Below are positions 1,983-19,021 of a stretch of DNA of 64,000 nt, piece after piece. The notes beneath the pieces were generated by a model. The model ran no database searches and was not told the origin of the DNA. It worked only from the letters and a program-made list of their open reading frames with translations. Numbering within the stretch: position 1 is the stretch's first letter; every line of letters starts with the position of its first letter. Source of the DNA: an uncultured Chloroflexia bacterium (lineage in GTDB: Bacteria; Chloroflexota; Limnocylindria; Limnocylindrales; CSP1-4); NCBI GenBank assembly GCA_963715295.1, contig CAVQRP010000006.1, forward strand, positions 155,585 through 219,584, in the 5' to 3' direction. Position numbers and translations under genes: made by a program.

Positions 1983-2010
1983 TTGCGATGCTGCCAATTG
2001 GTGCTAGCAT
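1983..2010 (+). promoter_or_regulatory. putative sigma-70-type promoter of the mazEF-like cassette (probably a leaderless mRNA)
   Basis: TTGCGA (1983-1988), a 16-nt spacer containing the palindrome CCAATTGG and an extended TGc, then TAGCAT (2005-2010). The ATG at 2017 lies 6 nt after the -10 element. Confidence 0.45.
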
Positions 2011-2016
2011 ATCGCG

Positions 2017-2531: not shown

Positions 2532-2619
2532 GCGGCCAGCAGCACCGGCGGCGGACTTGGAGCATTGGTCCGTGGCAGATGGCATCTGCAACGGGTCGTA
2601 CCTCGGGAGTCCATCGAGC

Positions 2620-2830: not shown

Positions 2831-2928
2831 TCGTCCGCCCTCCTGCATGCAGCCATCGTGCGGTGCGAGGACCTTCGACTCACTGTCGTCAGCTCACAGA
2901 TACTGTGAGACTGCGTTACTGTGACACG

Positions 2929-3168
2929 ATGAAGAACATCACTGTCTCTGTACCTGACGACGTCTATCGCGCCGCTCGCATCCGAGCCGCGGAGGAGGGC
3001 CGATCAGTCAGTGGCATGGTCGCGACCTACCTGCGCTCGCTTTCCTACGATGACGCCGAGTTCTCGCGGTTGGAAGCGCAGCAGCGTCGCATCCAAGGTC
3101 AGATCACGCGCTTCCGAGCGATGGACCGCCTGACGCGCGATGAGGTTCACGAACGTGCGCTTCGTTGA
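2929..3168 (+). CDS. ribbon-helix-helix (CopG/VapB-like) antitoxin
   Basis: Internal ATG of track ORF 2815..3168. MKNITVSVPDDVYRAARIRAAEEGRSVSGMV is a typical RHH N-terminus. Direct repeats TACTGTGA x2 lie just upstream and could be an operator. Confidence 0.7.
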   Translation: MKNITVSVPDDVYRAARIRAAEEGRSVSGMVATYLRSLSYDDAEFSRLEAQQRRIQGQITRFRAMDRLTRDEVHERALR

Positions 3169-3571
3169 CACGAACATCCTCTTGTACGCGATCTCACGCG
3201 ACCCGGCGGAGGAGGGCAAAGCGATGATCGCGAACGAGATCATCGACGGTGGTGAGATCGGCCTGTCGGTGCAGGTCCTGCAGGAGTTCTACGTCCAAGC
3301 GACCCGGGCAACTCGAGAAGACGCCATCACCCACGATGAGGCAGCCGGACTGGTCGAGGCTTGGTGTCGGTTCCCGGCGCAGGTCACGAGTCTCGATGTG
3401 ATGCGAGCGGCGCTGTCGACTCGGAGTCGCTTCGGCATCTCCTACTGGGACGCGGCGATCCTCGAGGCCGCTCGTGCCCTTGGATGTTCAGTGGTGTTGT
3501 CCGAAGATCTCGACGATGCCACCGACTACGAGGGCATCCGCGTGGAGGACCCCTTCCGACACGCTGCCTGA
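3140..3571 (+). CDS. vapC: PIN-domain ribonuclease toxin VapC
   Basis: 143 aa with FVDTNILLYA (first acidic PIN residue) and WDAAILEAA motifs. Overlaps the antitoxin 3' end. A GTG at 3155 is an alternative start. Confidence 0.8.
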   Translation: MRFTNVRFVDTNILLYAISRDPAEEGKAMIANEIIDGGEIGLSVQVLQEFYVQATRATREDAITHDEAAGLVEAWCRFPAQVTSLDVMRAALSTRSRFGISYWDAAILEAARALGCSVVLSEDLDDATDYEGIRVEDPFRHAA

Positions 3572-3581
3572 AGGCCGTCGA

Positions 3582-4145
3582 TCACCACCCCTCGAGCGGT
3601 CGCACCGAGCGCATGGCGGCGGTCGCCTCGTCCATGTCGAAGACTGTCGGGTCGAAGTCCAGCGGCGCCCATTCGCGCAGGTGGTCGAGCTCGGGATGTG
3701 CGGGATCCGACAGCGCGTCAAGCAGGTCCTCGTAGCCCATTGGCCCCCCGCAATCCTCGGGCGGGCAAGCCATGCTTCCGGCCAGGCAGTTCGGACCATT
3801 GAAGTCCGACCGCTGCGGGCTGATTTCCTCGACCACGACGTCGTGCTCCCAGCCATCGCCGAAGTCGTAGTCCCATCGCAGCTTCGAGCCCACGCCGGGC
3901 AGTACATCATGTAGCTGAAACGCGCGTTCGTCGAGGTCATCGTCGGGCCACTCGGGGTCGGGCATCGCGTACTTGGCATCAGCGCCTTCGAAGGCGTGCA
4001 GGTGTCCACCGAGCCAGCCCATCGCTGCCTCCAGGATGGCTGCCAGCTCAGCCAGGTCGATGTCGGAGCGAACCGTGATCCGTCGCCACACCGGCGGCTT
4101 CACCGACCTCAGGGTGATCTTCAGCTGGTAGACGGTGTCCTCCAT
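3582..4145 (-). CDS. plasmid pRiA4b ORF-3 family protein
   Basis: Start MEDTVYQLKITLRSVKPPVWRRI (ATG at 4145). Hallmarks YDFGDGWEH and CPPEDCGG. This family is typical of mobile-DNA contexts. Confidence 0.8.
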   Translation of the reverse strand: MEDTVYQLKITLRSVKPPVWRRITVRSDIDLAELAAILEAAMGWLGGHLHAFEGADAKYAMPDPEWPDDDLDERAFQLHDVLPGVGSKLRWDYDFGDGWEHDVVVEEISPQRSDFNGPNCLAGSMACPPEDCGGPMGYEDLLDALSDPAHPELDHLREWAPLDFDPTVFDMDEATAAMRSVRPLEGW

Positions 4146-4274
4146 GTCGTCTCCTGGTCGGCGATGGCTACTCAGCCTGACTGATCGACTGTGTCGTCCC
4201 GCGCCATTGTGGCTGCTCGACGCAACCCGACCAGCGTATGCTCGTCGCTCAGCGCTTGGCTTAGTAGCCGCGTC

Positions 4275-4347
4275 ACAGCGGCATTCGAGCGCTGTAGGCC
4301 CCTCTGTGTCGCTATCGGGACGCCCGCCGCAGAGTGTTCCGGGAGCC
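4275..4347 (+). repeat. array repeat copy B2 (left arm plus collapsed tRNA fragment; right arm missing)
   Basis: GCGGCATTCGAGCGCTGTAGGCCCCTCTGTGTCGCTATCGGGACGCCCGC, followed by CGCAGAGTGTTCCGGGAGCC, a collapsed version of GCGCAGAGGTAGCGCACATGCTTTGGGAGCC. Confidence 0.7.
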
Positions 4348-4367
4348 CTTCGAGCCACGCCACCTGG

Positions 4368-4766
4368 TCACTCGCGAGGGAACACCTCTACCGAAGCCGC
4401 GTGACCGGGCTCGCGAGCGAGTCGGGCATCGCAGGTGACCAGCGGTGCACCGAGGGCCTCCGCGAGTGCCAGGAACGCCGCGTCATAGGCCGTCACGTTG
4501 TGGCGAAGCTCCCACATGCGGTCCGCGAGAGAGACGTGTGGGTAGCGCACGATCGTCAGATTCCCGAAGTCCATCCGTGCGTCGGCGGCGCGATCGTCAT
4601 TGATCGCTCCGGCGACCACGAGGCGACGCAGCGCATGCTGGAACTCCACATCGATCAGGTGCGGAGCATGCAGGTCGCCGTCGTTGATGACACGGTCGAC
4701 AAGACGTGCAACTCGGGGCTGGCCCGCCAGAACGCCGATGACGGCCGACGTATCGACCACGATCAC
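4368..4766 (-). CDS. vapC: PIN-domain ribonuclease toxin VapC
   Basis: 132 aa with MIVVDTSAVIGVL (PIN N-terminal acidic motif) and AYDAAFLALAEALGAPLVTCD. Overlaps the upstream antitoxin gene by 4 nt. Confidence 0.85.
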   Translation of the reverse strand: MIVVDTSAVIGVLAGQPRVARLVDRVINDGDLHAPHLIDVEFQHALRRLVVAGAINDDRAADARMDFGNLTIVRYPHVSLADRMWELRHNVTAYDAAFLALAEALGAPLVTCDARLAREPGHAASVEVFPRE

Positions 4767-4993
4767 GGGCGATCGCGACCCGAGCGTACGGCTCCAACGA
4801 TGAGGTCGATATCGGCGCCGCCCGAGCGGGATCCCGCGCGAACGATCACATCAGCGACAGGCGGACGCTCCGCCAGGCGCGTGATGTCCCTGAGCAGGTA
4901 ATCCGACAGTGACGTCCCAGCCGCGGCCGCCCGGGCACGCAGGGTCCGGTGGACATCGTCAGGCACGTTGCGAATCTGTATCGAGTGACTCAT
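4763..4993 (-). CDS. vapB: VapB/FitA-like ribbon-helix-helix antitoxin
   Basis: Internal ATG (4993) of track ORF 4763..5044. MSHSIQIRNVPDDVHRTLRARAAAAGTSLSDYL is typical of RHH antitoxins partnered with VapC. Confidence 0.75.
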   Translation of the reverse strand: MSHSIQIRNVPDDVHRTLRARAAAAGTSLSDYLLRDITRLAERPPVADVIVRAGSRSGGADIDLIVGAVRSGRDRP

Positions 4994-5003
4994 GCGGGTG
5001 ATG

Positions 5004-5057
5004 ATACACCCGAGTTGGGTGTATGACATGGTATCCGCATGCACGTGCGTACATGCG
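5004..5057. promoter_or_regulatory. palindromic operator-like sites upstream of vapBC
   Basis: Perfect inverted repeat ATACACCC-gagtt-GGGTGTAT (5004-5024), plus CCGCATG-n10-CATGCGG (about 5033-5057), directly upstream of the minus-strand vapB start. Confidence 0.45.
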
Positions 5058-5325
5058 GCGCCTCCGCACTTAAATCAGCGGCGGCTGACGATGCGCTCTG
5101 GTCGGTCATCTAGACGATCGCTACTTCGACAAGCTCCGATCGGCGTCCCCGTGAGTCTCCTGCTCGTCCGGGGCTGATGCTGCTCGAGGCCATGCCGCAG
5201 GCCCTCGGCGTCGCCAGCTGACCATCCTCCGTGAGCGCCAGGGCAGCGACCGCGCCGAGGTCGCGGGCATCGATGAACGCTCATCGATCTCCCTTCTGTC
5301 ATGCGTCTTCCGCTGAAGTGGCAGG

Positions 5326-5542
5326 TTATCGTGCGGTTCGAGCGCCGTAGGTCCATCTGTGTCGCTATCGGGGCGCCCGTGTGTACCCTAGTCCACGCAC
5401 GGATACCGTCGGGGTGTAGCGCAGAGGTAGCGCACATGCTTTGGGAGCCTACGACCGGTTTGCGGTGCAGGCTCCGGGGTCTCGAGCGTGGACCGCGAAG
5501 CGGCGAAGGCGTCGATCATCGTGCGGTTCACGAATGTGAGCG
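5326..5542 (+). repeat. array repeat copy C (contains a tRNA-Pro 5' fragment at 5410-5448)
   Basis: Complete unit: TTATCGTGCGGTTCGAGCGCCGTAGG, GTCGCTATCG, GTGTGTACCCTAG, and 39/39 identity to tRNA nt 1-39. The right arm ends ATCATCGTGCGGTTCACGAATGTGAGCG. Confidence 0.9.
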
Positions 5543-5732
5543 TGTTCGGTGATCACCGCTGCGCGGCCGCACGTCACCGGGTTCGCCAACTCGGCCGATT
5601 CGAGCTCAGTCTCACGGGTACAGACCACTGAGGTGCTGACGTGTTCGGGCACGCTCGGCCCCGGCCATCCTTGAGTTCGGCAAACGGCAGGTCCTCGGTC
5701 CAGATCCGAGTGTCGGCTCCAGCGACTTGAAC

Positions 5733-5762
5733 GAAGAAGCCGGCCGCTAGGCCGGCTTCTTT
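5733..5762 (-). terminator. stem-loop terminator downstream of 5808-6311
   Basis: GAAGAAGCCGGCC-gcta-GGCCGGCTTCTT(T) is a perfect 12-13 bp stem, with short T/A-rich flanks on both strands. Confidence 0.55.
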
Positions 5763-5807
5763 CATCGAGATGCGCTGGCGGAAGGCCTGCGCATCGGTGT
5801 TGGCCGA

Positions 5808-6311
5808 TCAGGCCTCGGCGGGAGCCTCGGTCTCCTCCGGAGCTGCCTCGGCAACAGCATCCAGGGCCTCGTCGGTCACGTCGATGGCTTCTACCGAGCC
5901 ACCGAGCTCAGCGAGCTTGCCGGTGATCGCACCAGCCTCTGCGGCGGTCGCCAGGACCCCGACGGCTGCCTTGCCGCCGGTCAGCTCCGCGCCGATACGG
6001 GCCTTGTCCGCATCGCTCATGCCCAGACCCTTGTGATGGAAGGCGCCAAGGATCCCGCCGCCGACCACGCCAGCCAGCAACGCCGGGGGCGCCACGACCG
6101 CGAGGAGGAGGCCGATGCCGGCGCCCTTTGCCTTGCTGCGCGAGCCCATCTTGTGGGTCTTCAGCCCACCCTTGTCGTCAAGGACGAGCACGCCGATCGA
6201 GGTGAGCTTCACCTCGTCGCTTGCCTTGTCCCACGCCTTCAGCGACTCGACCGCCGCGTCCGCAGCAGCCTCGTCCGCAAAGACCCCTAAGACCACCTGG
6301 TTCTCAGCCAT
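5808..6311 (-). CDS. DUF1269-like membrane protein
   Basis: 167 aa. N-terminal VVLGVFADEAAADAAVESLKAW domain, a glycine-zipper TM segment (GAGIGLLLAVVAPPALLAGVVGGGILGA), then GMSDADKARIGAELTGGKAAVGVL. This architecture is typical of DUF1269. Confidence 0.65.
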   Translation of the reverse strand: MAENQVVLGVFADEAAADAAVESLKAWDKASDEVKLTSIGVLVLDDKGGLKTHKMGSRSKAKGAGIGLLLAVVAPPALLAGVVGGGILGAFHHKGLGMSDADKARIGAELTGGKAAVGVLATAAEAGAITGKLAELGGSVEAIDVTDEALDAVAEAAPEETEAPAEA

Positions 6312-6483
6312 GTTTGTTGCTCCTTCGATATGTCGTTAGTGCGACGGAGGATATTTCCGTTGCGCGACTCGACCGGCGGCCGAGGCGCTGTGCGCGATGA
6401 GCTGATCCCAATCGAGCGGAACCTCAAGACTACCCCCTGCGCCGCGATGACGACGCCAGGTGCCAGCAGACGGATCGTGCTGA

Positions 6484-7116
6484 CTACTCTTCTGGTCGGA
6501 GGCTCTGGCAGGTCTCGTCGTTCTTGATCGCGGTGCTGAGCTCGTTGGCAGGCTCGAGTTGCCGGATTTGGTGGAACGTTTGCTTGGCATCCTTGAGCAA
6601 CCCCTCGATGTCGCCCTTGATCTCATCGACACCGGTCGCGATCCCTTCGGCACCCGAGCCGCCGAGTGCTTCGGCTGCGCTCTTGATGTCCCCAACGCCG
6701 ACTTGAACGTCGCTGGTCAGTTGCACGAGGTCATCTTTCGCCTTGTTGCCGTCGTCCGTCTCGGGTGCGCCGATGGCTCCGAGCTGATCGGCGAGGTCCT
6801 TGGTCGCTTGCTCGGCGTCAGCGAACCCTTGTGACAGCGCGTCCCTTGAGATGCCGTTCTTGATATCGGCCGCGATGGTCTTGACCGAGTCTTCCCACGT
6901 CGCGATGGCACCGCACACATCGCTTGCCCACACGGCCGCCGTGGTGGCCTCCTGGGTCGCGGCGGGCTGAGTCGTGGTCGCAGCAGTCGTGGCCGCCGCC
7001 GCCTGCGTCGCCTCGCTGTCAACACCGCTGCATGCCACGATCAGCAGCGTGGCGCTCGCGGCCAGAGCCAGCAACTGCACCGGAAGGCGCACTCGTACTC
7101 GTTGTGTCATCTCCAC
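6484..7116 (-). CDS. secreted lipoprotein, function unknown
   Basis: 210 aa. Signal peptide with lipobox LLIVAC, a Thr/Ala-rich linker, then a helical acidic domain. Confidence 0.65.
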   Translation of the reverse strand: MEMTQRVRVRLPVQLLALAASATLLIVACSGVDSEATQAAAATTAATTTQPAATQEATTAAVWASDVCGAIATWEDSVKTIAADIKNGISRDALSQGFADAEQATKDLADQLGAIGAPETDDGNKAKDDLVQLTSDVQVGVGDIKSAAEALGGSGAEGIATGVDEIKGDIEGLLKDAKQTFHQIRQLEPANELSTAIKNDETCQSLRPEE

Positions 7117-7206
7117 CCCTCCTCATCATCTTCCTACAGGCGCAGCGCGCTCTCACTGGCCTCGTTGACGATGGGACTTGGAGGACCACGTGTCGATGGG
7201 CCGGCC

Positions 7207-7432
7207 AGCCCCTACCGCGGAGAGCTTTCATGGACGCGGCCGGAATGCAGTCCAGGAAGACCTCCACGCAGCGCATCAGGTCGAGGTTGCCGAAGAGCTT
7301 CTGCGACGTCTCTGACGATGGCACACCACCGCTGAAGTCAAACGTACCCAGGCTGGTCTCCACACGATCTGGGGTCGTGATCCTGGACGGGATCGGCGTG
7401 TTGCAGCCCTTGGGGATGTCGACGTTGCTCAT
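7207..7432 (-). pseudogene. N-terminal fragment of a DUF1254/DUF1214-family gene
   Basis: MSNVDIPKGCNTPIPSRITTPDRVETSLGTFDFSGGVPSSETSQKLFGNLDLMRCVEVFLDCIPAASMKALRG resembles the first ~75 aa of ~450-aa DUF1254 proteins. Similarity is lost after that, and the lipoprotein gene starts at 7116. Confidence 0.45.
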
Positions 7433-7633
7433 GGGGTCCTTCCAGCTCGTGCGCGTGCCGGCAGGGTGCTGCTTCGGGTTTCTGAGGGGCCGGAGAGCGA
7501 GGCGCAACCCTTCATCGCATCTTGCCAGAGCCCGTCTCGTCGCTTTGGTCCAGCTGGCGAGCCACAGAGATCGCGCGATCGGGCCCCGGCACTCGGCCGA
7601 CGGGCCAGGTGTGTCGAGGACGGCGTCGATCGG

Positions 7634-7840
7634 CGGCGGTTCACCTTCGAGCGCTGCAGGCCCCCTGCTATCGCTTGAGGGCCGCGCTGTGTACCCTAGT
7701 CACGCACGACCTCGTCGGGGTGTAGCGCAGAGGTAGCGCACATGCTTTGGGAGCCTTCGGGGGGTACGGCGCAGGCTCCGGGGTCCTGAGCGTGGTGGAT
7801 GGAGCGGCGAAGGCGTCGATTATTGTGTGGTTCGTGAGCG
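7634..7840 (+). repeat. array repeat copy D (contains a tRNA-Pro 5' fragment at 7716-7754)
   Basis: Left core CGGCGGTTCACCTTCGAGCGCTGCAGGCCCCC, GCTATCG box, GTGTACCCTAG, and 39/39 tRNA identity. The right arm ends GATTATTGTGTGGTTCGTGAGCG. Confidence 0.9.
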
Positions 7841-7929
7841 TGCGAGCCCAGAGATCTGCCTCGCACAGATCTATGGTCCTGTACGCTCGTCCCCTGTGCT
7901 AAGGTGACTACCTTGGTGACCACTTAGGC

Positions 7930-8517: not shown

Positions 8518-8597
8518 GTGAGCGCAGAGGTGGCGCTCAGCCGTCGGGAGCCCAGGCGGGGTTTGGGCGAAGCCACGATCATCGTGCGGTTCGAGCG
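8518..8597 (+). repeat. collapsed array repeat copy E0, fused to copy E with no cassette between them
   Basis: GAGCGCAGAGGTGGCGC...GGGAGCC-caggcgg-GGTTTGGGCGAAGCC-ACGATCATCGTGCGGTTCGAGCG. This is a tRNA-fragment remnant with a shortened right arm, and its terminal core is also the left core of copy E. Confidence 0.7.
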
Positions 8598-8787
8598 CTG
8601 TAGGCCCCTGGAATCGCCATCGAGCGCGGGCTGTGTACCCTATCCACGCACGAACGCCGTCGGGGTGTAGCGCAGCGGTAGCGCACATGCTTTGGGAGCC
8701 TATCAGGGGTGAGCGGTGAAGGCTCCGCGGTCCCGAGCGTGGCGGGCCGAGCGGTGAAGGCCTCGATTATTGTGCGGTTCGCGAGCG
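8578..8787 (+). repeat. array repeat copy E (contains a tRNA-Pro 5' fragment at 8661-8699)
   Basis: Complete unit with 38/39 identity to tRNA nt 1-39 (D-loop AGCGG variant). The right arm ends GATTATTGTGCGGTTCGCGAGCG. Confidence 0.9.
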
Positions 8788-8954
8788 TGATCCACCCAGC
8801 TGGAGGTCCGGGCAGAGTCAAGGCTGCCCGGCCCGGCCTACAGGGTCGGCGGGTCTCCCGGAGAAGATGAAGCCCTGGATCGTCCAAGGGTCCCTGTCCG
8901 GCCACTGCTCGAAGCACGACAACTCAGCTTAGCCGCCGGTCCTCCTGTACCAGA

Positions 8955-9130
8955 TCACGATGATGTCGCCGACCGAAACGCGCGCTTGTTGAGGTCATTC
9001 TCCAGCCGCTCGGGATCGGGCATCGCGTATCTGGCCTGCGAGCCCGCTTCCGCGCCATCACGGCATTTCCCAGAATGTTTAGCGGTGAGGTAGACATTCG
9101 AGACCACGAGCCCCAGTATGCCCATCCTCG
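8955..9130 (-). pseudogene. remnant of a pRiA4b ORF-3 family gene
   Basis: ...DGAEAGSQARYAMPDPERLENDLNKRAF... aligns with FEGADAKYAMPDPEWPDDDLDERAF of the intact copy at 3582-4145. The YDFGDGWEH and CPPEDCGG parts are absent. Confidence 0.45.
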
Positions 9131-9190
9131 GATGAGTGTTGTCGGTGAGCCACCGGGGTTCGACCAAACCGGCCTGATGGAGGTGTTCCC

Positions 9191-10346
9191 ATGCGGGGAA
9201 CCGACAGGGGGATTGCGATGGGGGTCGCTTTGGTGGTTGCGGTGGCTGCGCCAGTGGCGGCACAGGGACCGGCGATCACCGAAGTCATCGGCGGCTTGAA
9301 TTCGCCCCGCGGTGTCGCCATCGGCGCCGACGGCACGATCTATGTCGCCGAGGCAGGGGTTGGTGGCACCGAGCCGTGTGCGACGCATGCGGAGCTCGGC
9401 GACATGTGTTTCGGGGCCAGTGGCGCCATCACGGCTGTCGCGGGTGGTGAGGCTTCGACCCTCGTCGACGGTCTTGCTTCGGGGCTCACCGCCACCGGAG
9501 AGGCCATCGGGCCATCGGATGTGACGGTGGGTGCAGATGGGACCGTTTGGTTCCTGGTCGGAGGCCCCGCTGCTGGATCTGCAGAGTTCCGCGCAGTCCA
9601 TCCCCGACGGCGCCGCTGCCGGCATGGGCCAGCTCTATCGCGTCGATGCTGATGGTGTGGCCCAGAGCGTGGCCGACTTCGCTGATTACGAGACGACCGT
9701 CAACCCCGATGCTGACCAGCCGGGCAATGCCGAACCTGATTCGAATGCCCACGGATTGGTGGAGACGCCAGAGGGTGCCGCGATCGCGGACGCGGGCGCG
9801 AACACCCTGCTACTCGTTGATGCCGGGGGTGTCATCTCTACCCTCGCTGTCTTCCCTGTCGTGATGCAGCCCGCTCCGCCAGACCCGGAAGCCGAGCCTG
9901 ACCCGGACGCAGAGCCGCCCATGATCCCGATGGATCCGGTTCCGACAGGCGTGGCGCTCGGCGATGATGGCGCGCTGTACGTGGGAGAACTGACCGGCTT
10001 CCCATTCCCGCCCGGTGGCGCCGCCGTGTATCGCGTCGCACCCGGGGAGGAGCCTTCGGTGTACGCCGATGGCTTCACCAACGTGATCGACGTCGAGTTC
10101 GCGCTCGATGGCACGCTCTACGTGCTCGAGCTCGCTCATGAAGGGCTCTTGAGTGCGGGAGAAGACGGACCTCCCATGGGTGGGCTGTGGAAGGTTCCCC
10201 CCGGTGGTGGCACTGCAGAGCTCATCACCAGTGATGGCCTACCGATGCCCGGCGGTCTGGCCGTCTCCGCCGATGGCACGGTCTACATCTCGACCTGCAC
10301 CGGCTGCCCACCCGGCGCGGGTGGGCTCGTCAGCATCCAGCCGTAA
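9191..10346 (+). pseudogene. ScyD/ScyE-family beta-propeller protein, frame-disrupted
   Basis: Signal peptide and GGLNSPRGVAIGADGTIYVAE are in track ORF 9191..9652. The rest (GALYVGELTGFPFPPGGA, DGTLYVLE, DGTVYIS) is in ORF 9531..10346 in another frame. The frame change is near 9570-9600. Confidence 0.65.
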
Positions 10347-10433
10347 CGATCGGACCGCCCTGAGTGGAAGCGCGTCGGCATACGGCCGGCGCGCTTTCTT
10401 TCAGCTCTCAGGATGTGAGGGCCCAGCGCACCA

Positions 10434-11090
10434 TCACTGGACGGTGAGCGTGCCCACCATGCCGGCCTCCCGATGTCCGGAGATCGAGCAGTAGTACGCT
10501 GTACGTGCCGGGCTCGATATCGGTCACGGTGGCTTCGCCCACCTCGCCCGCGGCCACGACGATCACGATCCCCAGCTCGTCCACCGTCAGGTTGTGCACG
10601 ACACGCCCGGCGTTCTTGAGCCTGATCGTCCAGTGCTCCGAGCTGGAGACCGTTAGCGCAGCCGGTGTGAACCACAGGTCCCGAGCTTCCACCTCGACCG
10701 TCGCGAGCGGAGGCTCATCGGCGGCTTGCGCGCACTGCGGTCGTCCCTTGCTGGGCGGTAGCGCACGCCTCGGACGCTGACGCTGGGACCGCGTCGATCG
10801 CGCCTGTCGACATCGACCGAGGGTCCCGAAGGGGAGGGTGGCTCTGTTTCGACTCGCACGTCGTCCGCGGTGCCATCTTGCAGGAGCGCCGTTCGACCAC
10901 CGGAGATGTCCCGCTCTTCGGACGCGCAGCTCTGGTCGTCCGACATCGGCACCGCGTTCCGGACGAGCGCACTGGCTTCATCGGACAGCCCCCGTTCCTG
11001 TGGATGGCCGGCCGCCACGGTAGATCCGAGGGCGAGGACGAGCACGACGGCGGCTGATATCGAGCGGAGCAAGGTCGGACGGTGCGGCAA
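10434..11090 (-). pseudogene. secreted cupredoxin-domain protein, frame-disrupted
   Basis: Signal peptide is in ORF 10653..11090 and the cupredoxin core (FTPAALTV...HNLTVDELGI) is in ORF 10408..10692. Removing one extra base near 10500 restores GTY(A)YYCSISGHREAGMVGTLTVQ* (Cu-ligand C, H, M motif, TGA at 10434-10436). A second frame change lies near 10690. Confidence 0.5.
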
Positions 11091-11164
11091 AGTGAGTCTC
11101 CCGCGATAATCACCCCCACGGACGATACATCCTACGCTACGTGGCGCGCCAAGGGCAGACCGCG

Positions 11165-11366
11165 GATCGTGGACGCTCGTGGCTGGCTCTTGCTATCGCC
11201 ACAGAGCCTCGCTGTGTACCCTAGTCACGCACGAACTCGTCGGGGTGTAGCGCAGAGGTAGCGCACATGCTTTGGGAGCCTTTGAGGCTCAAGCGGCGAA
11301 GGCTCGGGGTCCTGAGCATGGCGGGCCGAGCGGCGAAGGCCTCGATTATTGTGTGGTTCGCGAGCG
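11165..11366 (+). repeat. array repeat copy F (contains a tRNA-Pro 5' fragment at 11241-11279)
   Basis: Degenerate left core, TTGCTATCG box, GTGTACCCTAG, and 39/39 tRNA identity. The right arm ends GATTATTGTGTGGTTCGCGAGCG. Confidence 0.9.
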
Positions 11367-11553
11367 TGATTCGCGGCGAACTCCAGATGCTGATGGCCTG
11401 GCTGTCCGAGCGAGCCGCCTGACTCTGACTCCCGGCTTGGCGGCCACGGGATAATCGTCAGTAGCGGGAGGCGACGACGCGTGGCCCGCCGACCATGGCC
11501 GCTGAGGACCACGCCGAGCCACTGGCGAACCCGGCCCGCATTCGGGGGGACGT

Positions 11554-12196
11554 GTGATGGGTCTGCGCCGAAGCTGGTGGATCTCATTCTTCGGGGTACC
11601 GCACGGCCTGCCTGGACGGCTCGGCGTCAGGCTGATGCCGAGGAGCAGCCGGCCGTTCCACAACGTGATCGCCGCGGAGCTGGACCTCCAGCCGGAGGAT
11701 GAGCTGCTCGACGTCGGCTGTGGCTCGGCGACCCTGTTCGTCGACCACGCGGGGCACGTGCGCTACGTCGCCGGCCTCGACGCCTCCGAGCTGCAGCTCG
11801 AGATGGCCCGCCGCCGGCTGGCCGAGCGCATCGCGGCGGGCACCGCGGAGATCGTCGAGGGCGATGCCGACCACTCTGCCCTGGGAGGACGGCCGCTTCA
11901 GCGTCGCCACGTCGGTCAATGCCCTGAAGTTCTTCCCCGACCCGTTGGCAGCGCTGCGGGAGATGCACCGGGTCCTGCGCCCGGGTGGTCGGATGGCGGT
12001 CACGATGGGCGAGGCGGGGACGCCCGAAGGCGCGACCGAGGCCGTGGTCGACGGTTGGGCCAGTGGCAGTGGACCGACGACGCCGCGCAGGCGGCTGGTG
12101 GAGGAGGCCGGCTTCACCGATGTCGACGTCTCGGTGATGCCGGTGTTCTCGAAGGCGCTGCTGGCCCGCGGCATGAAGCGGCGGCAGCAGCGGTGA
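11554..12196 (+). pseudogene. class I SAM-dependent methyltransferase, frame-disrupted
   Basis: The N-terminal part with LDVGCGSATL (motif I) is in the frame of ORF 11554. After about 11875 the sequence continues in the frame of ORF 11699..12196 (TLPWEDGRFSVATSVNALKFFPDP...LRPGGRMAV). Confidence 0.7.
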
Positions 12197-12249
12197 AGCG
12201 GACGCCGAGCGGCAGACCAGCCGCTGGATCGGCGTGTGAGGGCGATCCG

Positions 12250-12990
12250 ATGCGACTGGCACCATCCCTGCATCGACTCGGCGAGGCGATCGTCAGCTGC
12301 TACCTCCTCGAGGAGGCCGGCGAGGTCACCATCATCGACGCGGGCGTGCCCGCCTACTACGGCGACCTGACGGCCGAGCTCGCGGCCATGGGCCGCACGA
12401 TCGAGGACGTCCGCGCGCTCGTGCTGACCCACGGCCACGACGACCACATCGGCTTCGCCGAGCGACTGCGTGCCGAGCGCGACGTGCCCGTCAGCATCCA
12501 CGAGCTCGACGCGGCCCTCGCGCGCGGCCAGGTCGGCAACCCGAGCGCCGGCATGGGCGAGCGCAGGCTCCGTTCCCTGCTGCACTACATGCTGTGGCTC
12601 ATGCGTCACGGCGGGATGCGGACCACGGCGCTGACGGAGGTCGGCACCTTCGACCCGGGCACGACGCTGGACGTGCCGGGCGCGCTGCGCGTCATCCACA
12701 CACCCGGACACACGCACGGCAGCGTCACCTTCCATGCGCCGGGGCACGACGCCCTCTTCGTGGGTGACGCGCTGGCCACGGACGCGGTCATCACCGAGCG
12801 CCGTGGTCCGCAGGTCTGTCCCTTCGCTGCCGATCCCGACGAAGCGCTGGCCTCGCTGGCGAGCATCGAGGAGATCGAGGCGCGCTGGCTGCTGCCCGGC
12901 CACGGGGAGCCCTGGACCGATGGCGTCGCGGCCGCGGTGGCCGCCGCGCGCGAGGTCGGCATCGGCCACCTCGCTCGGCCGAAACGGTGA
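12250..12990 (+). CDS. MBL-fold metallo-hydrolase
   Basis: ATG at 12250 inside the long track ORF 11554..12990. THGHDDHIG (HxHxDH zinc motif), HTPGHTHGS, and a later LPGHG. Confidence 0.8.
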   Translation: MRLAPSLHRLGEAIVSCYLLEEAGEVTIIDAGVPAYYGDLTAELAAMGRTIEDVRALVLTHGHDDHIGFAERLRAERDVPVSIHELDAALARGQVGNPSAGMGERRLRSLLHYMLWLMRHGGMRTTALTEVGTFDPGTTLDVPGALRVIHTPGHTHGSVTFHAPGHDALFVGDALATDAVITERRGPQVCPFAADPDEALASLASIEEIEARWLLPGHGEPWTDGVAAAVAAAREVGIGHLARPKR

Positions 12991-13025
12991 AGCCCATGTT
13001 CGTGTCTGTTCAAGGAGGTGACGAG

Positions 13026-14522
13026 ATGAGTGAGCAGCGTTCTCCTGATGGCCTGTATGTCGAGGAGTCCGGGACCCCGGGCTCGCCGGCCATCGTCTTC
13101 ATCCATGGAGCCGGCCAGAGCAGCCGCGAGTGGCGTCAGCACATGGACAGGCTCCCTGGCTTCCACTGCCTGGCGCCAGACCTGCCCGGGTTCGGGCGAA
13201 GCAACCATCTCGGGTCCGCGACCAAGGAGCGCGTGGCGGACCTGCTGGCCGCCTCATCGAGGAGCGCGTCCCGACGCAAGCGCGCCAGCGTCGTGGGCAT
13301 CTCCTCGGGCGGGCTGCACATCCACGCCCTGCTCGATCGCCACCCCGACCGCGTCGAGCGGGCTGTCATCGACGGCTCACCCCCCTTTGGCACGCCGCGC
13401 ATCGGCCGCGCGATCATGCGTCTGTGCATGCTTGCCATGGCGCCATTCATCCACACTCGCCCGCTCCTGGCGCTGTTCCGCGACACCCACGACCCGGAGG
13501 ACCTGCGGGTCGCATCACGCCTGGAGTTCGGGCGCGTCGTCGGGGAGTGCTTCGGGGAGTTCGCAGCCCTCGATGCGCCGAGCCCCGCCCTGCTCATCGC
13601 CGGCGAGAAGGAGAGCATCGTCCGATCGATGAACGCCGCCCTGGCCGAGGTCATGCCCCGGGGCGAGGCCTGGTACGTCCCCGGCCTCGGACACTGCTGG
13701 CAGAAGGCGGATCCCGACCTGCACATCCGCACGGTCGAGGCCTGGGTCAGCGGACAGGAGCTGCCGTCCGAGCTCCGTCGAGAAGCCGCTCCCTCGCCGG
13801 CCAAGGTCGAGCAGGTCCGGCGCATGGGCCCGGAGTTCTGGTACGTCAGGCACAAGGGTCGGCTCATGCGCTTGGCGAGGTTCTACTTCCGGCCCTTCCG
13901 GAAGCCTCTCGCCGAGGCCTACGGCAAGGCGGCAGGGGAGGCCATCGCCAGGGACGCGCTCGGGCGCTTCGAGGTCCTGCTGCCGGACATCCCCTACATC
14001 GGCGGTGGCGAGAACAGCATGACCATCACCCTCGTCAAGGTCGCGGCCAAGCTGGCGATGTACCGAGCACTCCGGGCCCGCGGGGCATCGGAGGAGGAAG
14101 CGGCCCGCCTCATCCACCTCGGGGAGGTGGCCTTCTACAAGAGCGTTCCGATGCGCTGGGTGATGCGCTTGCAGGGTCGAGGCTTCCTCAGCCGCAGAGG
14201 CGTGGATATGTGGAGACGCATCGCTGCCACCAGCCAGGAACGCCGCTACCCGGACGACTGGGTGTACGAGATCGTCGAAGGCGACGGAAGCGACTCCGGG
14301 ATGCGGCTGGACTGTATCGAGTGCGGGGCCGTCAAGTACCTCGACCGCGAAGGTGCCTCCGAGTACGCCCCGTATCTCTGCTGGATCGACTATCCCCAGT
14401 TCGCCGCGATGGGCCTGCGGCTCGACCGCACCGAGACCATCGCGCAAGGCGGCCAGCGCTGCGACTTCCGGGTGAGTCGGGGTGAACCAACTCACGTCGA
14501 GCCCGAGTTCCTGCACGTCTGA
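13026..14522 (+). CDS. fusion protein: alpha/beta hydrolase domain plus ATC-hydrolase-like domain
   Basis: ATG at 13026 lies 5 nt after AAGGAGGTG. N-terminal IVFIHGAGQS...VVGISSGG (nucleophile elbow). The C-terminal ~230 aa are a paralog of 257-955 (PYIGGGEN, ERRYPDDW, YLCWIDYP, CDFRV). A possible compensated double frameshift lies at about 13248-13290. Confidence 0.75.
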   Translation: MSEQRSPDGLYVEESGTPGSPAIVFIHGAGQSSREWRQHMDRLPGFHCLAPDLPGFGRSNHLGSATKERVADLLAASSRSASRRKRASVVGISSGGLHIHALLDRHPDRVERAVIDGSPPFGTPRIGRAIMRLCMLAMAPFIHTRPLLALFRDTHDPEDLRVASRLEFGRVVGECFGEFAALDAPSPALLIAGEKESIVRSMNAALAEVMPRGEAWYVPGLGHCWQKADPDLHIRTVEAWVSGQELPSELRREAAPSPAKVEQVRRMGPEFWYVRHKGRLMRLARFYFRPFRKPLAEAYGKAAGEAIARDALGRFEVLLPDIPYIGGGENSMTITLVKVAAKLAMYRALRARGASEEEAARLIHLGEVAFYKSVPMRWVMRLQGRGFLSRRGVDMWRRIAATSQERRYPDDWVYEIVEGDGSDSGMRLDCIECGAVKYLDREGASEYAPYLCWIDYPQFAAMGLRLDRTETIAQGGQRCDFRVSRGEPTHVEPEFLHV

Positions 14523-14598
14523 GTCCGCTCGTCGCACGGGAGACCTGGATCCGCGACGGTGAGGCCCGTCACGGTGTACGACCTCGAACGCCCAAGGG

Positions 14599-14807
14599 TT
14601 ATCGTGCGGTTCGAGCGCTGTAGGTCCCTCGGCGTCGCTATCGGGGCGCCGTGTGTACCCTAGTCAGGCACGAACACTCGTCGGGGTGTAGCGCAGCGGT
14701 AGCGCACATGCTTTGGGAGCCGCTGAGCGCTCTGCGGCGAAGGCTCCGGGGTCCTGAGCGCGATGGCCGGAGCGGTGAAGGCCTCGATTATTGTGCGGTT
14801 CGCGAGC
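14599..14807 (+). repeat. array repeat copy G (contains a tRNA-Pro 5' fragment at 14682-14720)
   Basis: Complete unit: TTATCGTGCGGTTCGAGCGCTGTAGG, GTCGCTATCG, GTGTGTACCCTAG, and 38/39 tRNA identity. The right arm ends GATTATTGTGCGGTTCGCGAGC. Confidence 0.9.
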
Positions 14808-14893
14808 ACGACCGGCTCGACTGGCGTCGCGCACGACCGTCGCCACCGATACACCCCGACGGTGCGCAGCCGCCTCGAGTCCTCGGTAGGCGG

Positions 14894-17800
14894 CTACAGG
14901 CTGGCCTGGAGCTCGTGGACCCGCTGGAGGTGGGCGGTCGCGCCGAGCTCGTCGAGGACGGTCGCAGCCCTGGAGAGGTCCTCGACGGCCGCTTCTGTCT
15001 GCCCAGCCGCGATGCGGTCGCTAGCCCGCTGCTCGTAGAGCTCAGCCTCGGCCAGCCGGTCACCGAACTGGCGGGCCAGCTCGAGGGCGCGCTCGTAGCG
15101 CTCGAACTCGACGCGGCCGACGCCCGACCGGGCCCGGGCCGTCTGCAGCAGTAGCTCGGTCTGCTCGATCTTGACCGGCATGAACTGGCAGAACACGGCC
15201 AGGTCCGCGCTGGCCTCGAAGGCGATGGCCGCCTGGGCCGCGTCGCCATCGCGCAGGTGCTGCTCGCCGATGACGCCGTGGCCGACCATGGCGCAGGCCT
15301 TGTTGCCGACCCGGTCGGCGACCGAGATGGCCTTGGTGGCGTACTCGATGGCGGCGGTCGAATCGCCCCGGATGCCCTCGACGATCCCGCGCGCCAGGTC
15401 GGCGTCGAGGCTGGCGTTGGGATCGCCGCTGAGAACGCCGAGCTCGTAGCCTCGGTCCGTCCACTCGACGGCCTTCTCGAACTCGCCCAGATGGCCGTAG
15501 GCCGTACCCAGTTGTCCCGCGGCCACCGAGGCGATGTAGGGCTGGCCGGACTCGATGAGGGTCGGGATGGCCCGCTCCCATGACTCGATGGCCTCGGCGA
15601 ACTCGCCGGACGCATAGTGGGCCTGCCCGGTGGCCGCGACGGCCATGGCTATCAACTCGGGTGACCCGCTCGCCTCGGCAAGTTCGGTGGCTCGCCGCAG
15701 CGCCGTCGCCAGCTCTGGACTGGAGCGATACTGTTCGCCACTGAGCGCGCGAGTCACGCCGATCTCAAGGTAGGCCCGTGCCGACATCGCCGGGTCTTCC
15801 AGGATCTCGCCATCGGCGATCACCGCTTCGAGAAGCGCCACGGTCTGATCGAGCGGCACGAAGTCGCCACCGGCTTCGGCCTGAAGGTAGCGAAGCTCGG
15901 CCCGCAGGCGCCGGGCCGGCGTGTCGATGGAGTCGTCGTCGGCCAGCAGGGCAAGCGCCCGCCGTGCGAAGTCGACGGCCTCGTGCCGGGCGAACCGTGA
16001 GCGGGCATGGCGAGCGGCGAGCGCCAGGTATTCGATGGCTCGGGCGCGATCCTCGGCTCGCTCGAAGTGGTGAGCGAGCACGGGCGCCATGTCGTCGCGG
16101 TGGTCCCCATACAGCGCCAGCAGCGTCTCCGCGACCTGGATGTGCAGCGAGCGCCGCTCCTGCTTGAGCAGTGACTCGTAGGCCGCGTCCTGGATGAGGG
16201 CATGACGGAAGAGGTACTCGAGTTCAGGCATCGAGGCGGCCAGCGCGATGAGCCCGGCGCCCTCGAGAAGACTCAGCTCACGCCCGATGCCCCCGCCTGA
16301 CCCGGTCGTCACGATGGCTCCTTCACGATCTGGTCGAGCACGCTGACGGGGAAGGTGCGGCCGATGACCGAGGCTACGCGCAGGACCCGGCGTGCCTCGC
16401 TGGGCAGGCGATCGATGCGGGCAAGGAGCAGGCCGTGCAGCGTCTCGGGGATCTCGACATCGACGACCTTGGCGGTCGCGGTCCAGCGGCCGTCCCGCAA
16501 CTCGATAGCCTCGCGGTCGATGAGCATGCGCACGATCTCCTCGACGAAGAGCGGGTTGCCCTCGGCCCGCGCCAGGATCATGGCCCGGGTGGCGGCCGGC
16601 AGGGAATCGATGGCCAGCAGGTTCGCCACCAGGCGCTCGCCGTCCTCGGCCCCCAGCGGCTTGAGGCGAAGGTCGACCAGGGCCTCGCCGAATGCGTCCC
16701 CGGCTGCCCCGATGAGCTGCCAGCCCGGCACCTCGCGCTCTGCGCGACTGGCCACCACCCACAGCACGGGCATGGTAGACAGCGCCGGGACGAGCGGCAG
16801 CAGGAGTGCCACCGAGGCGTCATCGGTCCAGTGCACGTCGTCGCAGACCATGACCACGGGCTGGGTCCGCGCCGCACCCGCGATGAGACTCGAGATGGAC
16901 TCCGTGTAGCGGAGCTGCAGCGTGCGCGGCTCCATGTTCGCCAGCCGTTCCTCGCCGGCCGCGTCCAGCGGCAGCGAGAGGAGGTGGCTGAGGATGGGAC
17001 CGAACTCCGCGGCGTCTCCGCCCACCAGATCGTCGAGTCGGCGTGCCAGCTTCTCGCTGGCCTCGTCGGCGGGGATGCTCTCGAGCGGTTCGGGCAGGCC
17101 CAGCAGCGCGCGGACCAGGTCGATGGCCAGGTGCAGCGGCAGGTTGCGGCCGTAGCTGACCGTGCGGGCCTCGACCCAGCCGAAGCCGTCGGCCTCCGCG
17201 ACATCGCGCAACTCCCGCAGCAGGCGGCTCTTGCCGATGCCCGGCTCGCCCACGACCAGAGCCATGCGGCCGATGCCGCCACGCACGGGGGCGAGGGTGG
17301 CTACGAGCTGCGCCAGCTCGGCATCCCGCCCCACCATTCGACTGCTGAGACCGGCCACGCCGCGTACCGATCTGAGGATGCCCGTACGGCCCAGGACCTC
17401 GTAGGCCTCGACCGGTTCGGCTTTGCCCTTGACGCTCACGGGGCCGACGTGGCGGCTCTCGATCGCGCCGCTCACCCGGCTGTACGTCTCGCCGGTGATC
17501 ATGATGCCGCCGGGCCGGGCCTCCGACTGCATCCGCGCGGCCACGTTCAGCGTGTCGCCGTAGATGCGTGAGTCCCGGGTGGTGCCGCCCGCGGCGGTGT
17601 CGCGCACCACGACCTCGCCGCTGTTGATGCCGACCCGGATCTGGAATTCGATGCCCTGGGGTCGCAGCTCCGCGGCGAACGTGTCGATGCTGCCGACCAT
17701 CTCGATGGCGGAGCTGACCGCCCGGGCGGGGTCGTCCTCGTGGGCCGAGGGCAGACCGAACAGGGCCATGAAGCCATCGCCGGTGTGCGACGCGACCCAG

Positions 17801-18051
17801 CCCTCGTAGCGCTCCACAGCGCTGGTCATGATGGCCATGGCGCGTTCCATGGTCATGGCCCAGTCCTCGGGGTCCATCGCCTCTGCGAGGCTCGTCGAGC
17901 CGACGACGTCGACGAACAAGGCCGTGACCGGACGACGTTCACCCGTTACATGATCAGGCTGCACCACATGGATGCTAGCGGACGGTGCCTGCACCAGTCC
18001 ATCGGACACTGGACGGGTGCCACGCCGGCGACGGGCGTGCTGGAGCTCCAC
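14894..18051 (-). pseudogene. class III adenylate/guanylate cyclase - P-loop ATPase - TPR protein (about 1050 aa), one frame disruption
   Basis: ORF 16309..18051 carries the cyclase domain (VTALFVDVVGST...GDGFMALFG...GINSGEVVV) and P-loop GEPGIGKSRL. ORF 14894..16762 continues in another frame with the conserved helical region and TPR repeats. The frame change is near 16310-16330. Confidence 0.7.
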
Positions 18052-18368
18052 GTTGAGGAGATGCGCATCCTCGGCCGGTTCCCGGTCGCCACAGGCTACC
18101 TAGGCCACCCGGGCCATGTCGGCGTGGTAGGTCGCGACCAGTCGTGCGAAGGCCGCCTCGTCGCCGGCCCCCGCGAGCGCGATCGTGGAGGCGACGACCT
18201 GACCGCCCATCGCCTGAGGGTTCATGTCCTATAGATGCGTCGCGAGTAGATGCGTCGCGAGGCCGTTGTGCTACAGAGTTTCCGCAGATGGGCCGCGAAG
18301 GCGCGTACCCCCTCGCTACTCCAACACGAGTCTCCCAGCGGCGCCAGAGGAGAACGGCCCGTGTCGCG

Positions 18369-18451
18369 TTATCGTGCTATTCGAGCGCTGTAGGCCCTCC
18401 GCTACCGGCTCGAGAGCCGCGCTGTGTACCCTATCCACGCACGAACCTCGT
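18369..18451 (+). repeat. array repeat copy H: left arm and promoter-like segment directly upstream of the intact tRNA-Pro
   Basis: TTATCGTGCTATTCGAGCGCTGTAGGCCC...GCTACCG...GTGTACCCTATCCACGCACGAACCTCGT is homologous to the left arms of copies C, E and G. No right arm follows the tRNA. Confidence 0.85.
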
Positions 18452-18526
18452 CGGGGTGTAGCGCAGAGGTAGCGCACATGCTTTGGGAGCATGAGGTCGC
18501 GGGTTCGATCCCCGCCACCCCGACCA
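18452..18526 (+). tRNA. tRNA-Pro (anticodon UGG), CCA encoded
   Basis: Manual cloverleaf: acceptor CGGGGTG/CACCCCG, D arm GCGC-agaggta-GCGC, anticodon arm CATGC-TTTGGGA-GCATG, variable AGGTC, T arm GCGGG-TTCGATC-CCCGC, discriminator A, then CCA. Confidence 0.9.
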
Positions 18527-18625
18527 TCTTCTTCGACTCTTGCCGCCCGCTCACTCTGTCGTGCCGCGCCTCGAGCTGCTCGCGGTAGCATCGCGAACGT
18601 GGACGAGACTGAAGCCAGGAGGCCG

Positions 18626-19021
18626 GTGAGTGCGCACGCCGAGACCGAGGTCGCCGCGAGCGACCGTGATGTCTGGGCCGTGCTGGCCGACGTCGGAGGC
18701 TGGCCCAGTTGGAATCCCGGCGTCCGCGATGCGGTCATCGATGGCGCGCTGGAGGTCGGCGCGCACCTCCGTTTCGCGACGGGCCCGGGGACGATGTCCT
18801 GCCTCCTGCTCGACGTGGATGCGCCACGCAGGCTGACCTGGTCGGGTCGACTGCTGGGTCTTGGGCATCGGCAGGTCTGGCGCATCGAGCCACGACCGGA
18901 CGGTTGCCTGGTCACGGTCGACGGTGCGATGACCGGCCCTATCGCCTGGCTCTTCAGGCGCCGACTTCGGCCGCCAGCTGCGGCGGGATGTGCACGCCTG
19001 GCTGCGACTGCTCAAGCTTGA
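18626..19021 (+). CDS. SRPBCC (polyketide cyclase/dehydrase-like) family protein; the 3' end may be frame-shifted
   Basis: GTG at 18626 lies 3 nt after AGGAGG; the track ORF start at 18491 falls inside the tRNA. VAASDRDVWAVLADVGGWPSWNPG. From about 18950 another frame reads ADFGRQLRRDVHAWLRLLKLEAE... and ends in a TGA overlapping the next ATG (19073-19076). Confidence 0.6.
   Translation: MSAHAETEVAASDRDVWAVLADVGGWPSWNPGVRDAVIDGALEVGAHLRFATGPGTMSCLLLDVDAPRRLTWSGRLLGLGHRQVWRIEPRPDGCLVTVDGAMTGPIAWLFRRRLRPPAAAGCARLAATAQA

Follow-up and report, generated by a model that had tools for sequence, protein, structure and literature searches.

What has placed six copies of the 5' half of a tRNA gene, each embedded in a longer repeat, in a row upstream of the only intact copy of that gene? 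The question is raised by a 64,000-nucleotide stretch of DNA (here called the window) from an uncultured Chloroflexia bacterium of the Limnocylindrales (contig CAVQRP010000006.1, positions 155,585 to 219,584 of the forward strand). Its first 18.5 kb form a co-oriented array of six full composite repeats, two remnants, and the live tRNA-Pro(UGG) gene. The answer toward which we lean, with confidence a little better than even, is an integron-like cassette array at tRNA-Pro(UGG), in which a recombinase acting in trans would insert cassettes site specifically and with a rare polarity that leaves 5' fragments of the gene.

The only tRNA that ARAGORN detected in the window is tRNA-Pro(tgg) (18452-18526, + strand), and Rfam matched this gene at 71.5 bits. 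A 38-mer that starts after C1 and runs from GGGGTG to TTTGGGAGC had seven + strand matches with two or fewer mismatches, where none was expected by chance: positions 2705, 5411, 7717, 8662, 11242, and 14683, plus the live gene at 18453. The shared stretch comprises an upstream left arm and the first 39 bases of the tRNA, and the left arms of the live gene and of all the fragments form one family. The parts of the live gene are the following:

18452..18526, + strand: live tRNA-Pro(UGG) gene (ARAGORN, Rfam, repeat search)
18452-18490, + strand: tRNA 5' half common to all fragments (canonical positions 1-40)
18491-18526, + strand: tRNA 3' half, a single copy in the window
18366..18451, + strand: left arm of the live gene, with CGAGCGCTGTAGGCC (18382-18396) and the conserved TGTGTACCCTA, a putative -10 region
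18484..18490, + strand: candidate recombination core TGGGAGC (canonical tRNA positions 34-40), placed from junction end-points

A first-pass annotation, made by reading the window without database searches, had claimed that identity to the repeats breaks off just past the anticodon loop, and had proposed aligning all copies to map the break. That multiple alignment, together with a profile hidden Markov model (HMM) of the repeat, bears out the claim. Identity between the live gene and the six repeats ends at ...TTTGGGAGC (18490), and the live gene corresponds to left arm plus 5' half (18366-18492, HMM positions 10-135) without a right arm. After GGGAGC the live gene reads ATGAGGTCGCGGGTTCGATCC, the genuine 3' half, whereas each of the six fragments continues with C, about 12 variable bases, and a conserved right arm in place of the tRNA 3' half.

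The full repeat is about 220 bp long: a left arm of about 85 nt, tRNA positions 1-40, the C, the 12 or so variable bases, and about 80 conserved bases that form the right arm. The copies in the window, listed outward from the tRNA, are as follows:

14593..14813, + strand: composite repeat G (38-mer search, HMM); 5' half 14682-14720, D-loop AGCGG
11184..11373, + strand: composite repeat F; 5' half 11241-11279, D-loop AGAGG; left box divergent
8575..8795, + strand: composite repeat E; 5' half 8661-8699, D-loop AGCGG
7645..7844, + strand: composite repeat D; 5' half 7716-7754, D-loop AGAGG
5322..5541, + strand: composite repeat C; 5' half 5410-5448, D-loop AGAGG
4272..4323, + strand: remnant with the start of the left arm only (HMM 12-63), in the B-to-C interval
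2624..2835, + strand: composite repeat B; 5' half 2704-2742, D-loop GGCGG
1740..1803, + strand: remnant A, with the end of the right arm only (HMM 165-228); a left-box-like piece lies before it at about 1715-1735

The live gene shares the AGAGG D-loop of C, D, and F, and the 38-mer search returned the variant of every copy exactly as the first-pass annotation had listed it. Repeat B has lost the conserved A14 of the D-loop to mutation and thus looks like an old copy in decay. The remnant at 4272..4323 represents a decayed junction within the B-to-C interval. The window holds at least nine cassettes, and the array continues past its left edge; downstream of the tRNA the repeat HMM finds no copy within the window. 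The GC content is 64-67% at 1-11 kb versus about 70% in the remaining window.

The arms have a consistent anatomy. Each unit carries three direct copies of CGAGCG[CG][CT]G[AT]AGGC[CT], one at the left boundary and two in the right arm. The right arm also contains a terminal box, ATTGTGCGGTTCGCGAGCGTGA, and a related box opens about half of the left arms. The window contains 19 matches to the motif CGAGCGSYGWAGGCY versus 5.6 expected, all of them on the + strand, and 16 of the 19 lie inside repeats. Between unrelated junctions the tRNA fragment is 95% identical, the three motifs 81-88%, and other arm segments 58-78%. The direct repeats on either side of the core have the layout of arm-type binding sites, so that the arms resemble attP; the resemblance is a lead and not proof. 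RNAalifold on 31 repeat copies gave a covariation term of -1.0 kcal/mol, with a compensatory change in 1 of 33 pairs. Because base-pair covariation is lacking, protein-binding sites are favored over RNA or hairpin elements as an explanation for the motifs. The idea that the repeat is a structured RNA or an attC-like hairpin was ruled out by this near absence of covariation, and Rfam matched only the tRNA. MAFFT had suggested that the right arm might be a decayed tRNA 3' half with its downstream flank. A shuffle test led to rejection of this candidate: the local alignment score of the right arm against the tRNA 3' half and flank was 17, compared with 16.4 +/- 2.6 in 2000 dinucleotide shuffles. 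Inspection of the right box by eye only, for a dif/Xer-like site, revealed no inverted partner arm.

The arrangement is not peculiar to the window. Species-representative genomes (one per species) were scanned for the exact fragment junction, GCGCACATGCTTTGGGAGC followed by any base but A. All but 3 chance hits among the 30 stretches recovered came from Chloroflexota metagenome-assembled genomes (MAGs), uncultured Chloroflexia or Limnocylindrales. Family contigs often hold several such matches each, the right arm is the same in each family match, and C follows GGGAGC in 40 of 40 family fragments from other genomes. The set of loci was then widened by metagenome and contig look-ups and mapped with the repeat HMM, which located 103 copies in 39 loci, almost all in Limnocylindrales-type Chloroflexota MAGs. 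They lie always upstream of tRNA-Pro and are co-oriented inside each locus. Fifty copies are full, 16 consist of left arm and 5' half (intact tRNAs and the L016 type), and 34 are partial; the inter-repeat segments (n = 62) have a median length of 1.5 kb (quartiles 0.83 and 2.45 kb). The tRNA 3' half is present exactly once per locus, in the live gene. The unusual polarity noted in the first reading thus holds throughout: only 5' fragments are found, all of them upstream and co-oriented. Two divergent lineages (L006 and L008) have fragments with the D-loop of their own lineage's tRNA and the same break base. Downstream of the tRNA the gene order is conserved (SRPBCC, DUF2568, GGDEF, Cys/Met-PLP enzyme, ResB, GlnA), which makes one end of the array a fixed anchor in the chromosome and leaves all of the variability on the 5' side.

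Comparison of these loci demonstrates that the segments between repeats move between species. Cassettes of the window are 88-96% identical in DNA sequence to cassettes of other MAGs whose tRNA/SRPBCC flank is only 66-70% identical to that of the window and whose SRPBCC proteins show 42-54% identity between hosts. For example, in two loci from one sample (L101 and L102), the core is 77% identical, but one cassette (X) and its repeat are 97.7% identical, rising to 99.7% over the last 300 nt, and this cassette occupies different array positions in the two. Among 1,128 junction pairs, 48 share only the left neighbor, 28 share only the right neighbor, and none shares both. The gap between cassette and core identity and the reshuffled neighbors indicate that the cassettes are independent, horizontally moving units.

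The same comparison bears on the proposal in the first-pass annotation that the live gene is a chimera whose 5' half came with the last cassette. In agreement with that proposal, no fewer than two cassette families that stand next to the live tRNA in one genome are found inside the array in others. A Phd/YefM cassette occupies the terminal position in L016 and an internal one in the window (the junction at 8662) and in seven other loci. The cassette preceding the live tRNA in L020 is internal in L009, where it stands before a fragment and right arm. A weaker possible third terminal-versus-internal pair, L001/L025, comes from one analysis only. This shift from terminal to internal position is exactly what successive insertion at the tRNA predicts.

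The position of the exchange can be approached through junctions at which family sequence meets unrelated DNA:

L103:1451, L007:2015, L027:5759, and L097:5116: right arm only; family sequence starts (T)GGGAGCC
L016:2253: left arm plus 5' half; family sequence ends GGGAGCC
L037: 3' half only, beside SRPBCC and with an ECF sigma gene upstream; starts GAGC/ATGAGG
L040 (a relative of L037): decayed remnant of the tRNA 3' end

A fifth right-arm-only junction, at L103:16278, is approximate. All junction types have (T)GGGAGC (positions 34-40) in common, so that the core falls on the 3' side of the anticodon loop, in a span from the anticodon through the first two bases of the 3' stem strand. The overlap region of tyrosine recombinases is of matching size. 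The break in the anticodon loop thus behaves as a recombination core, within which strand exchange would take place. The first-pass annotation had seen in the anticodon stem and loop the core-site layout of a tyrosine integrase. The break at the 3' side of the loop agrees with that suggestion, but its other half, the integrase itself, was not found. In L037 (1-340) and L040 (380-660), which are metagenome contigs, a divergent ECF sigma-factor gene lies upstream of the tRNA-Pro remnant, which in both adjoins the SRPBCC gene, and in L037 the 5' half and promoter were lost at the same break-point as that of the fragments.

These observations can be joined in the following mechanism. Cassettes of 0.5-6 kb, with toxin-antitoxin pairs, enzymes, regulators, and one riboswitch-controlled operon as cargo, would each end in the 220-bp site, made up of a left arm with CGAGCGCTGTAGGCC and the putative tRNA promoter, tRNA positions 1-40, and a right arm with ATTGTGCGGTTCGCGAGCGTGA. 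A presumably circular cassette would undergo site-specific recombination inside (T)GGGAGC with the live tRNA gene. This exchange would shift the resident promoter and 5' half upstream, where they would remain as a fragment attached to the right arm of the incoming cassette, and the promoter and 5' half of that cassette would be fused to the resident 3' half. Because each cassette would supply its own 5' half in this way, the live tRNA would be a chimera renewed with every insertion, and the newest cassette would adjoin it. A cassette-borne 5' half would have to work in the tRNA upon insertion. If so, rebuilding of the tRNA would test the site of each cassette, since a defective 5' half would damage the tRNA, and this test may be why the displaced fragment is nearly invariant, at 95% identity, while the arms drift. 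For the enzyme, the simplest guess would be a heterobivalent tyrosine recombinase, given that the site resembles attP with arm-type repeats.

A number of results weigh against such a mechanism. The first concern the enzyme. No Phage_integrase, resolvase, or other recombinase was detected with Pfam among about 40 open reading frames (ORFs) of the window and neighboring loci. Searches with jackhmmer, started from XerD and gamma-delta resolvase, gave nothing in all ORFs of the window and L001-L030, and precomputed Pfam annotation (the set L092-L103), covering 10 kb around eight more SRPBCC loci and one 20-kb stretch of array, L103, included no recombinase. Neither a circular cassette nor an empty site was observed. 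Since no recombinase was found in the cassettes or beside the arrays searched, the enzyme would act in trans from elsewhere, or none is needed. In addition, about 60 inter-repeat segments from more than 25 genomes contained no integrase or integrase fragment, the fragment-junction pattern had no match in IMG/VR, and in INPHARED phages and PLSDB plasmids the whole repeat unit of about 233 bp matched nothing but ordinary tRNA-Pro genes.

The interior of the repeats supplies further contrary evidence. Only the outermost sub-segments of a repeat track the adjacent cassette. Between the window (W) and L002, near-identity on the side of the right cassette begins only about 30 nt into the right arm, and the HMM position at which ancestry switches differs by pair: about 143 for L010/L020, about 162 for L002/W. 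Such weak internal linkage departs from the prediction of a single fixed crossover and indicates ongoing homologous exchange. In junction comparisons the D-loop variant is linked to neither the left nor the right cassette, and the argument of the first-pass annotation that the D-loop variants fit each element having its own version of the 5' half is not supported, because one cassette family has AGAGG or AGCGG depending on the genome. An attempt to pin the crossover through linkage of repeat sub-segments to cassettes likewise located no single point. The mosaic clearly points to homologous recombination or gene conversion between repeats as a process that reshuffles cassettes. Core-placed starts of partial copies also speak with a modest voice, as they number 5 of 24 (P of about 0.04) in a post hoc comparison.

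The left arm presents a difficulty of its own. A consensus scan detected no canonical sigma-70 promoter in it, and the promoter assignment accordingly follows from conservation and position only. The outermost copies in short arrays (L094 and L010) still have left-arm-like sequence, and the left arm may therefore simply be native promoter DNA. A metagenome scan with an SRPBCC profile recovered no array-free locus with an intact tRNA-Pro: the loci obtained had arrays, ended at the tRNA with the contig, retained no more of the tRNA than its 3' half or a remnant of it (L037 and L040), or were distant and had no tRNA there (L032, L033, and L036). In L043 there is 2.5 kb of unmatched DNA upstream.

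The main rival, which we consider unlikely but the most serious of the alternatives, is that homologous recombination alone accounts for the arrays. One ancestral circle would have joined left arm, 5' half, and right arm, and RecA-type events would have done the rest: Campbell insertion into the 125-nt homology before the tRNA or into any repeat, and excision between repeats. The sharp end at GGGAGC would be inherited rather than made anew at each event, and no dedicated recombinase would be needed. The failure to find one in or near the arrays searched, the mosaic interiors, the D-loop unlinked to either cassette, and exchange boundaries that vary between pairs all fit this explanation, for which the invariant 39-nt tRNA piece is a perfect block of homology. 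However, homologous recombination does not predict half-junctions to unrelated DNA exactly at (T)GGGAGC. It also gives the right arm no role, yet the three motif and box elements there are 73-88% conserved across unrelated cassette bodies and are conserved as well across hosts with about 50% core protein identity, and arms that are 60-85% identical are a poor RecA substrate.

It is less probable still, and on balance doubtful, that the array is a decayed tandem series of 5'-fragment integrase islands that later lost their integrase genes by deletion and kept cargo and att remnants. Tandem tRNA arrays, 5'-fragment islands, and degenerate remnants are known (PMC4383910; tycheposon preprint bioRxiv 10.1101/2020.12.28.424599), and the 34 partial copies are what decay would leave. 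On this explanation, however, some trace of an integrase would be expected, yet none was seen in about 60 inter-repeat segments, which are also very small. Between species, intact cassettes whose sites are complete show 95-99.7% identity, which argues that they move in their present integrase-less form. A nonmobile segmental duplication, in which the tRNA promoter and 5' half were copied in place with ordinary chromosomal genes between the copies, would account for the left arm at even the outermost copies as plausibly native promoter DNA, but is very improbable because cassettes are far more similar than the core between genomes, neighbors are reshuffled in every comparison, the GC content of the array is lowered, and the conserved right arm, which in the shuffle test showed no similarity to the tRNA 3' half or flank, is left unexplained.

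Site-specific insertion at the tRNA gene, the reading that we favor, invites comparison with known systems. Genes for tRNAs are classic targets of tyrosine integrases, and the element normally carries the 3' part of the gene. A 5' fragment was recorded for 159 of 3,919 Islander islands (PMC4383910), and a passage of PMC6563490, citing Zhao and Williams 2002, calls the reversed polarity "considerably less frequent." Islander accepts tandem arrays only if every member has its own integrase and lists four arrays of three or more members (PMC4383910). Like Islander-type islands, the cassettes would target a tRNA gene, with a break that appears to be centered on the anticodon loop, and the incoming DNA would restore the gene; a co-oriented displaced fragment lies at each junction, and repeated use of the site gives tandem arrays. 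In the window, an intact gene for the tRNA is preceded by six co-oriented 5' fragments on the + strand, as Islander demands, and with regard to its canonical crossover sublocations, the end-points converge on (T)GGGAGC while linkage inside the repeats is mosaic. In contrast, no unit was found to have its own integrase (Pfam on cassette ORFs, jackhmmer, and precomputed Pfam for L092-L103), and units are 0.5-6 kb rather than 5-100 kb. The arrays are also long, with at least nine units here and about 18 repeats, full and partial, in five 8-kb chunks of CAVQJC010000005. Both arms stay conserved whatever the cargo, and each internal junction is therefore a complete attP-like site, unlike the junctions of Islander islands. 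Island finders that require an integrase per unit discard such arrays by design.

The organization recalls that of another type of array. Integrons are the textbook arrays of recombinase-less cassettes at one site. As in integrons, small recombinase-less cassettes (median, 1.5 kb) stand at one fixed point with the newest presumably adjoining it, the order is shuffled between genomes (0 of 1,128 pairs share both neighbors), a conserved site bounds each cassette, and the cargo is rich in toxin-antitoxin pairs and small enzymes. The differences are substantial and concern the features that define integrons. No intI was found beside the insertion point, where SRPBCC, DUF2568, GGDEF, and other core genes follow downstream, either in the 64-kb window or inside 10 kb in eight related loci, and attC hairpins are absent: the site is a 220-bp unit of direct motifs and half a tRNA, without a conserved hairpin, rather than an imperfect palindrome of 60-140 bp. 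Genes of integron cassettes are mostly promoterless and share the orientation of the array, whereas these lie in both orientations, and each cassette would bring a tRNA promoter in place of a single Pc.

A third parallel is provided by CIMEs (cis-mobilizable elements) and accretion arrays beside integrative conjugative elements, known from the Streptococcus ICESt literature: att sites flank these elements, which lack a recombination module of their own and accumulate at a tRNA-type site. The 39 loci, IMG/VR, INPHARED, and PLSDB yielded no helper element with the same att site, and the cassettes described here are much smaller and far more numerous. In Prochlorococcus, tycheposon islands grow at the proximal tRNA by successive integrations, with partial tRNA copies between them; tRNA-Pro tgg is among the targets, and the elements have adaptive cargo and their own tyrosine recombinase and replication genes (bioRxiv 10.1101/2020.12.28.424599). 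The cassettes differ in that no recombinase or replication module was found in them and in that the partial tRNA lies inside a much larger, two-armed, conserved site.

The full-text literature searched yielded no description of such arrays. The combination of very small integrase-less cassettes, a two-armed 220-bp site at each junction, long arrays, and interspecies spread therefore appears to be new. It is possible, although we hold it short of an even chance, that the arrays represent a distinct, previously undescribed integron-like platform for gene capture, with an essential tRNA gene as its site, a portable promoter and 5' half, and a dedicated recombinase, perhaps of an unrecognized type, that would serve all cassettes in trans. 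If so, the platform would be widespread in soil Limnocylindria, carrying cassettes across species, and would be an independent second route to the integron-like layout, reached from the logic of tRNA integrases in their rare reversed polarity. In abundant, uncultured soil Chloroflexota, the arrays identify a hotspot at which species have recently exchanged genes, and the definition of a compact site and core sequence provides a usable handle for finding the recombinase.

The cassettes of the window, from the tRNA outward, are as follows:

14814..18365: last (tRNA-proximal) cassette, with an adenylate cyclase/AAA_16/TPR gene on the - strand (14894-18051)
11374..14592: cassette F-to-G, with a c-di-GMP-II-GAG riboswitch, a methyltransferase/metallo-beta-lactamase gene, and an alpha/beta-hydrolase/ATC_hydrolase gene
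8796..11183: cassette E-to-F, including a cupredoxin-like gene; 94.5% identical to L002
7845..8574: cassette D-to-E, with a Phd/YefM antitoxin module; family terminal in L016 and internal in eight other loci
5542..7644: cassette C-to-D, with a DUF1269-like gene and further ORFs
2836..5321: two fused cassettes, the first with a PIN toxin module and PRiA4_ORF3 gene, the second at 4324-5321
1..2623: distal cassettes, one with ATC_hydrolase and GNAT acetyltransferase genes (104-1631), the other at 1804-2623

Three further identities to other loci were measured: 90-92% between cassette F-to-G and cassettes of L021, L027, and L029, 95.6% between the second fused cassette and L007, and 91% between the distal cassette at 1804-2623 and L025. 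Cassette genes lie on both strands, about 60% of them co-oriented with the array in the window; those on the opposite strand include 3582-4358, 5808-6311, 10408-10692, and 14894-18051. In the last of these, the adenylate-cyclase/AAA_16 ORF (16309-18051) and the TPR ORF (14894-16762) overlap by about 450 nt in different frames, which looks like one large STAND-type signaling gene with a frameshift, or an assembly error.

The riboswitch in cassette F-to-G is a full-length c-di-GMP-II-GAG aptamer (RF03169) at 11458-11545 on the + strand, with a score of 58 bits against a gathering score of 40 (E value of 2e-9). It lies just upstream of the methyltransferase/metallo-beta-lactamase ORF at 11554-12990, within a mobile cassette, homologues of which occur in L021, L025, L027, and L029. 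L103 (1-20723), the distal part of another array, consists mostly of right-arm-only remnants, with HMM starts at 125, 132, 134, 174, and 202. Its cargo is mainly paralogous methyltransferase, alpha/beta-hydrolase, and ATC_hydrolase genes like those at 104-955 and 11554-14522 of the window. In L030 (1646-2431, - strand), an IS21-type IstB gene takes the place of the left arm of one repeat, an insertion sequence within an array.

The first gene of the core flank was also examined:

18601..19021, + strand: SRPBCC (Polyketide_cyc2) gene; start approximate, read by eye

Computations on it used the ORF 18491-19021 and the start 18629. The SRPBCC protein of the window aligns with its homologues until about residue 113, then diverges and stops early, which suggests a frameshift near 18960. 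The homologues start with MEQTR 7 nt after a conserved TAGCAT, a spacing that suggests a leaderless transcript.

The assemblies of L092, L099, and L100 break at SRPBCC or no more than about 120 nt upstream of it. L099 ends inside the tRNA-Pro 5' half and L092 at the break-point between fragment and 3' half; L100 keeps no tRNA sequence. These breaks fit a repeat array that defeats assembly, so the frequency of arrays is probably underestimated in short-read data. In three genomes the 3' side of tRNA-Pro is also variable, by some other route: L096 (8226-10000), L097 (6177-10000), and L101 (5258-10000) carry additional genes, 1.8-4.7 kb in extent, that separate SRPBCC from the live tRNA-Pro. These genes encode an ABC-2 membrane protein, a glucosyltransferase, LPG_synthase_TM, and GT2, and they have no flanking tRNA 3' fragment or repeat. 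Farther downstream, positions 39500-50700 of the window contain two paralogous sugar ABC transporter operons about 6.2 kb apart (D8 and D10-D12; 66-79% identity), and a sugar ABC transporter operon resembling this region flanks the distal ends of the arrays in L003 and L010.

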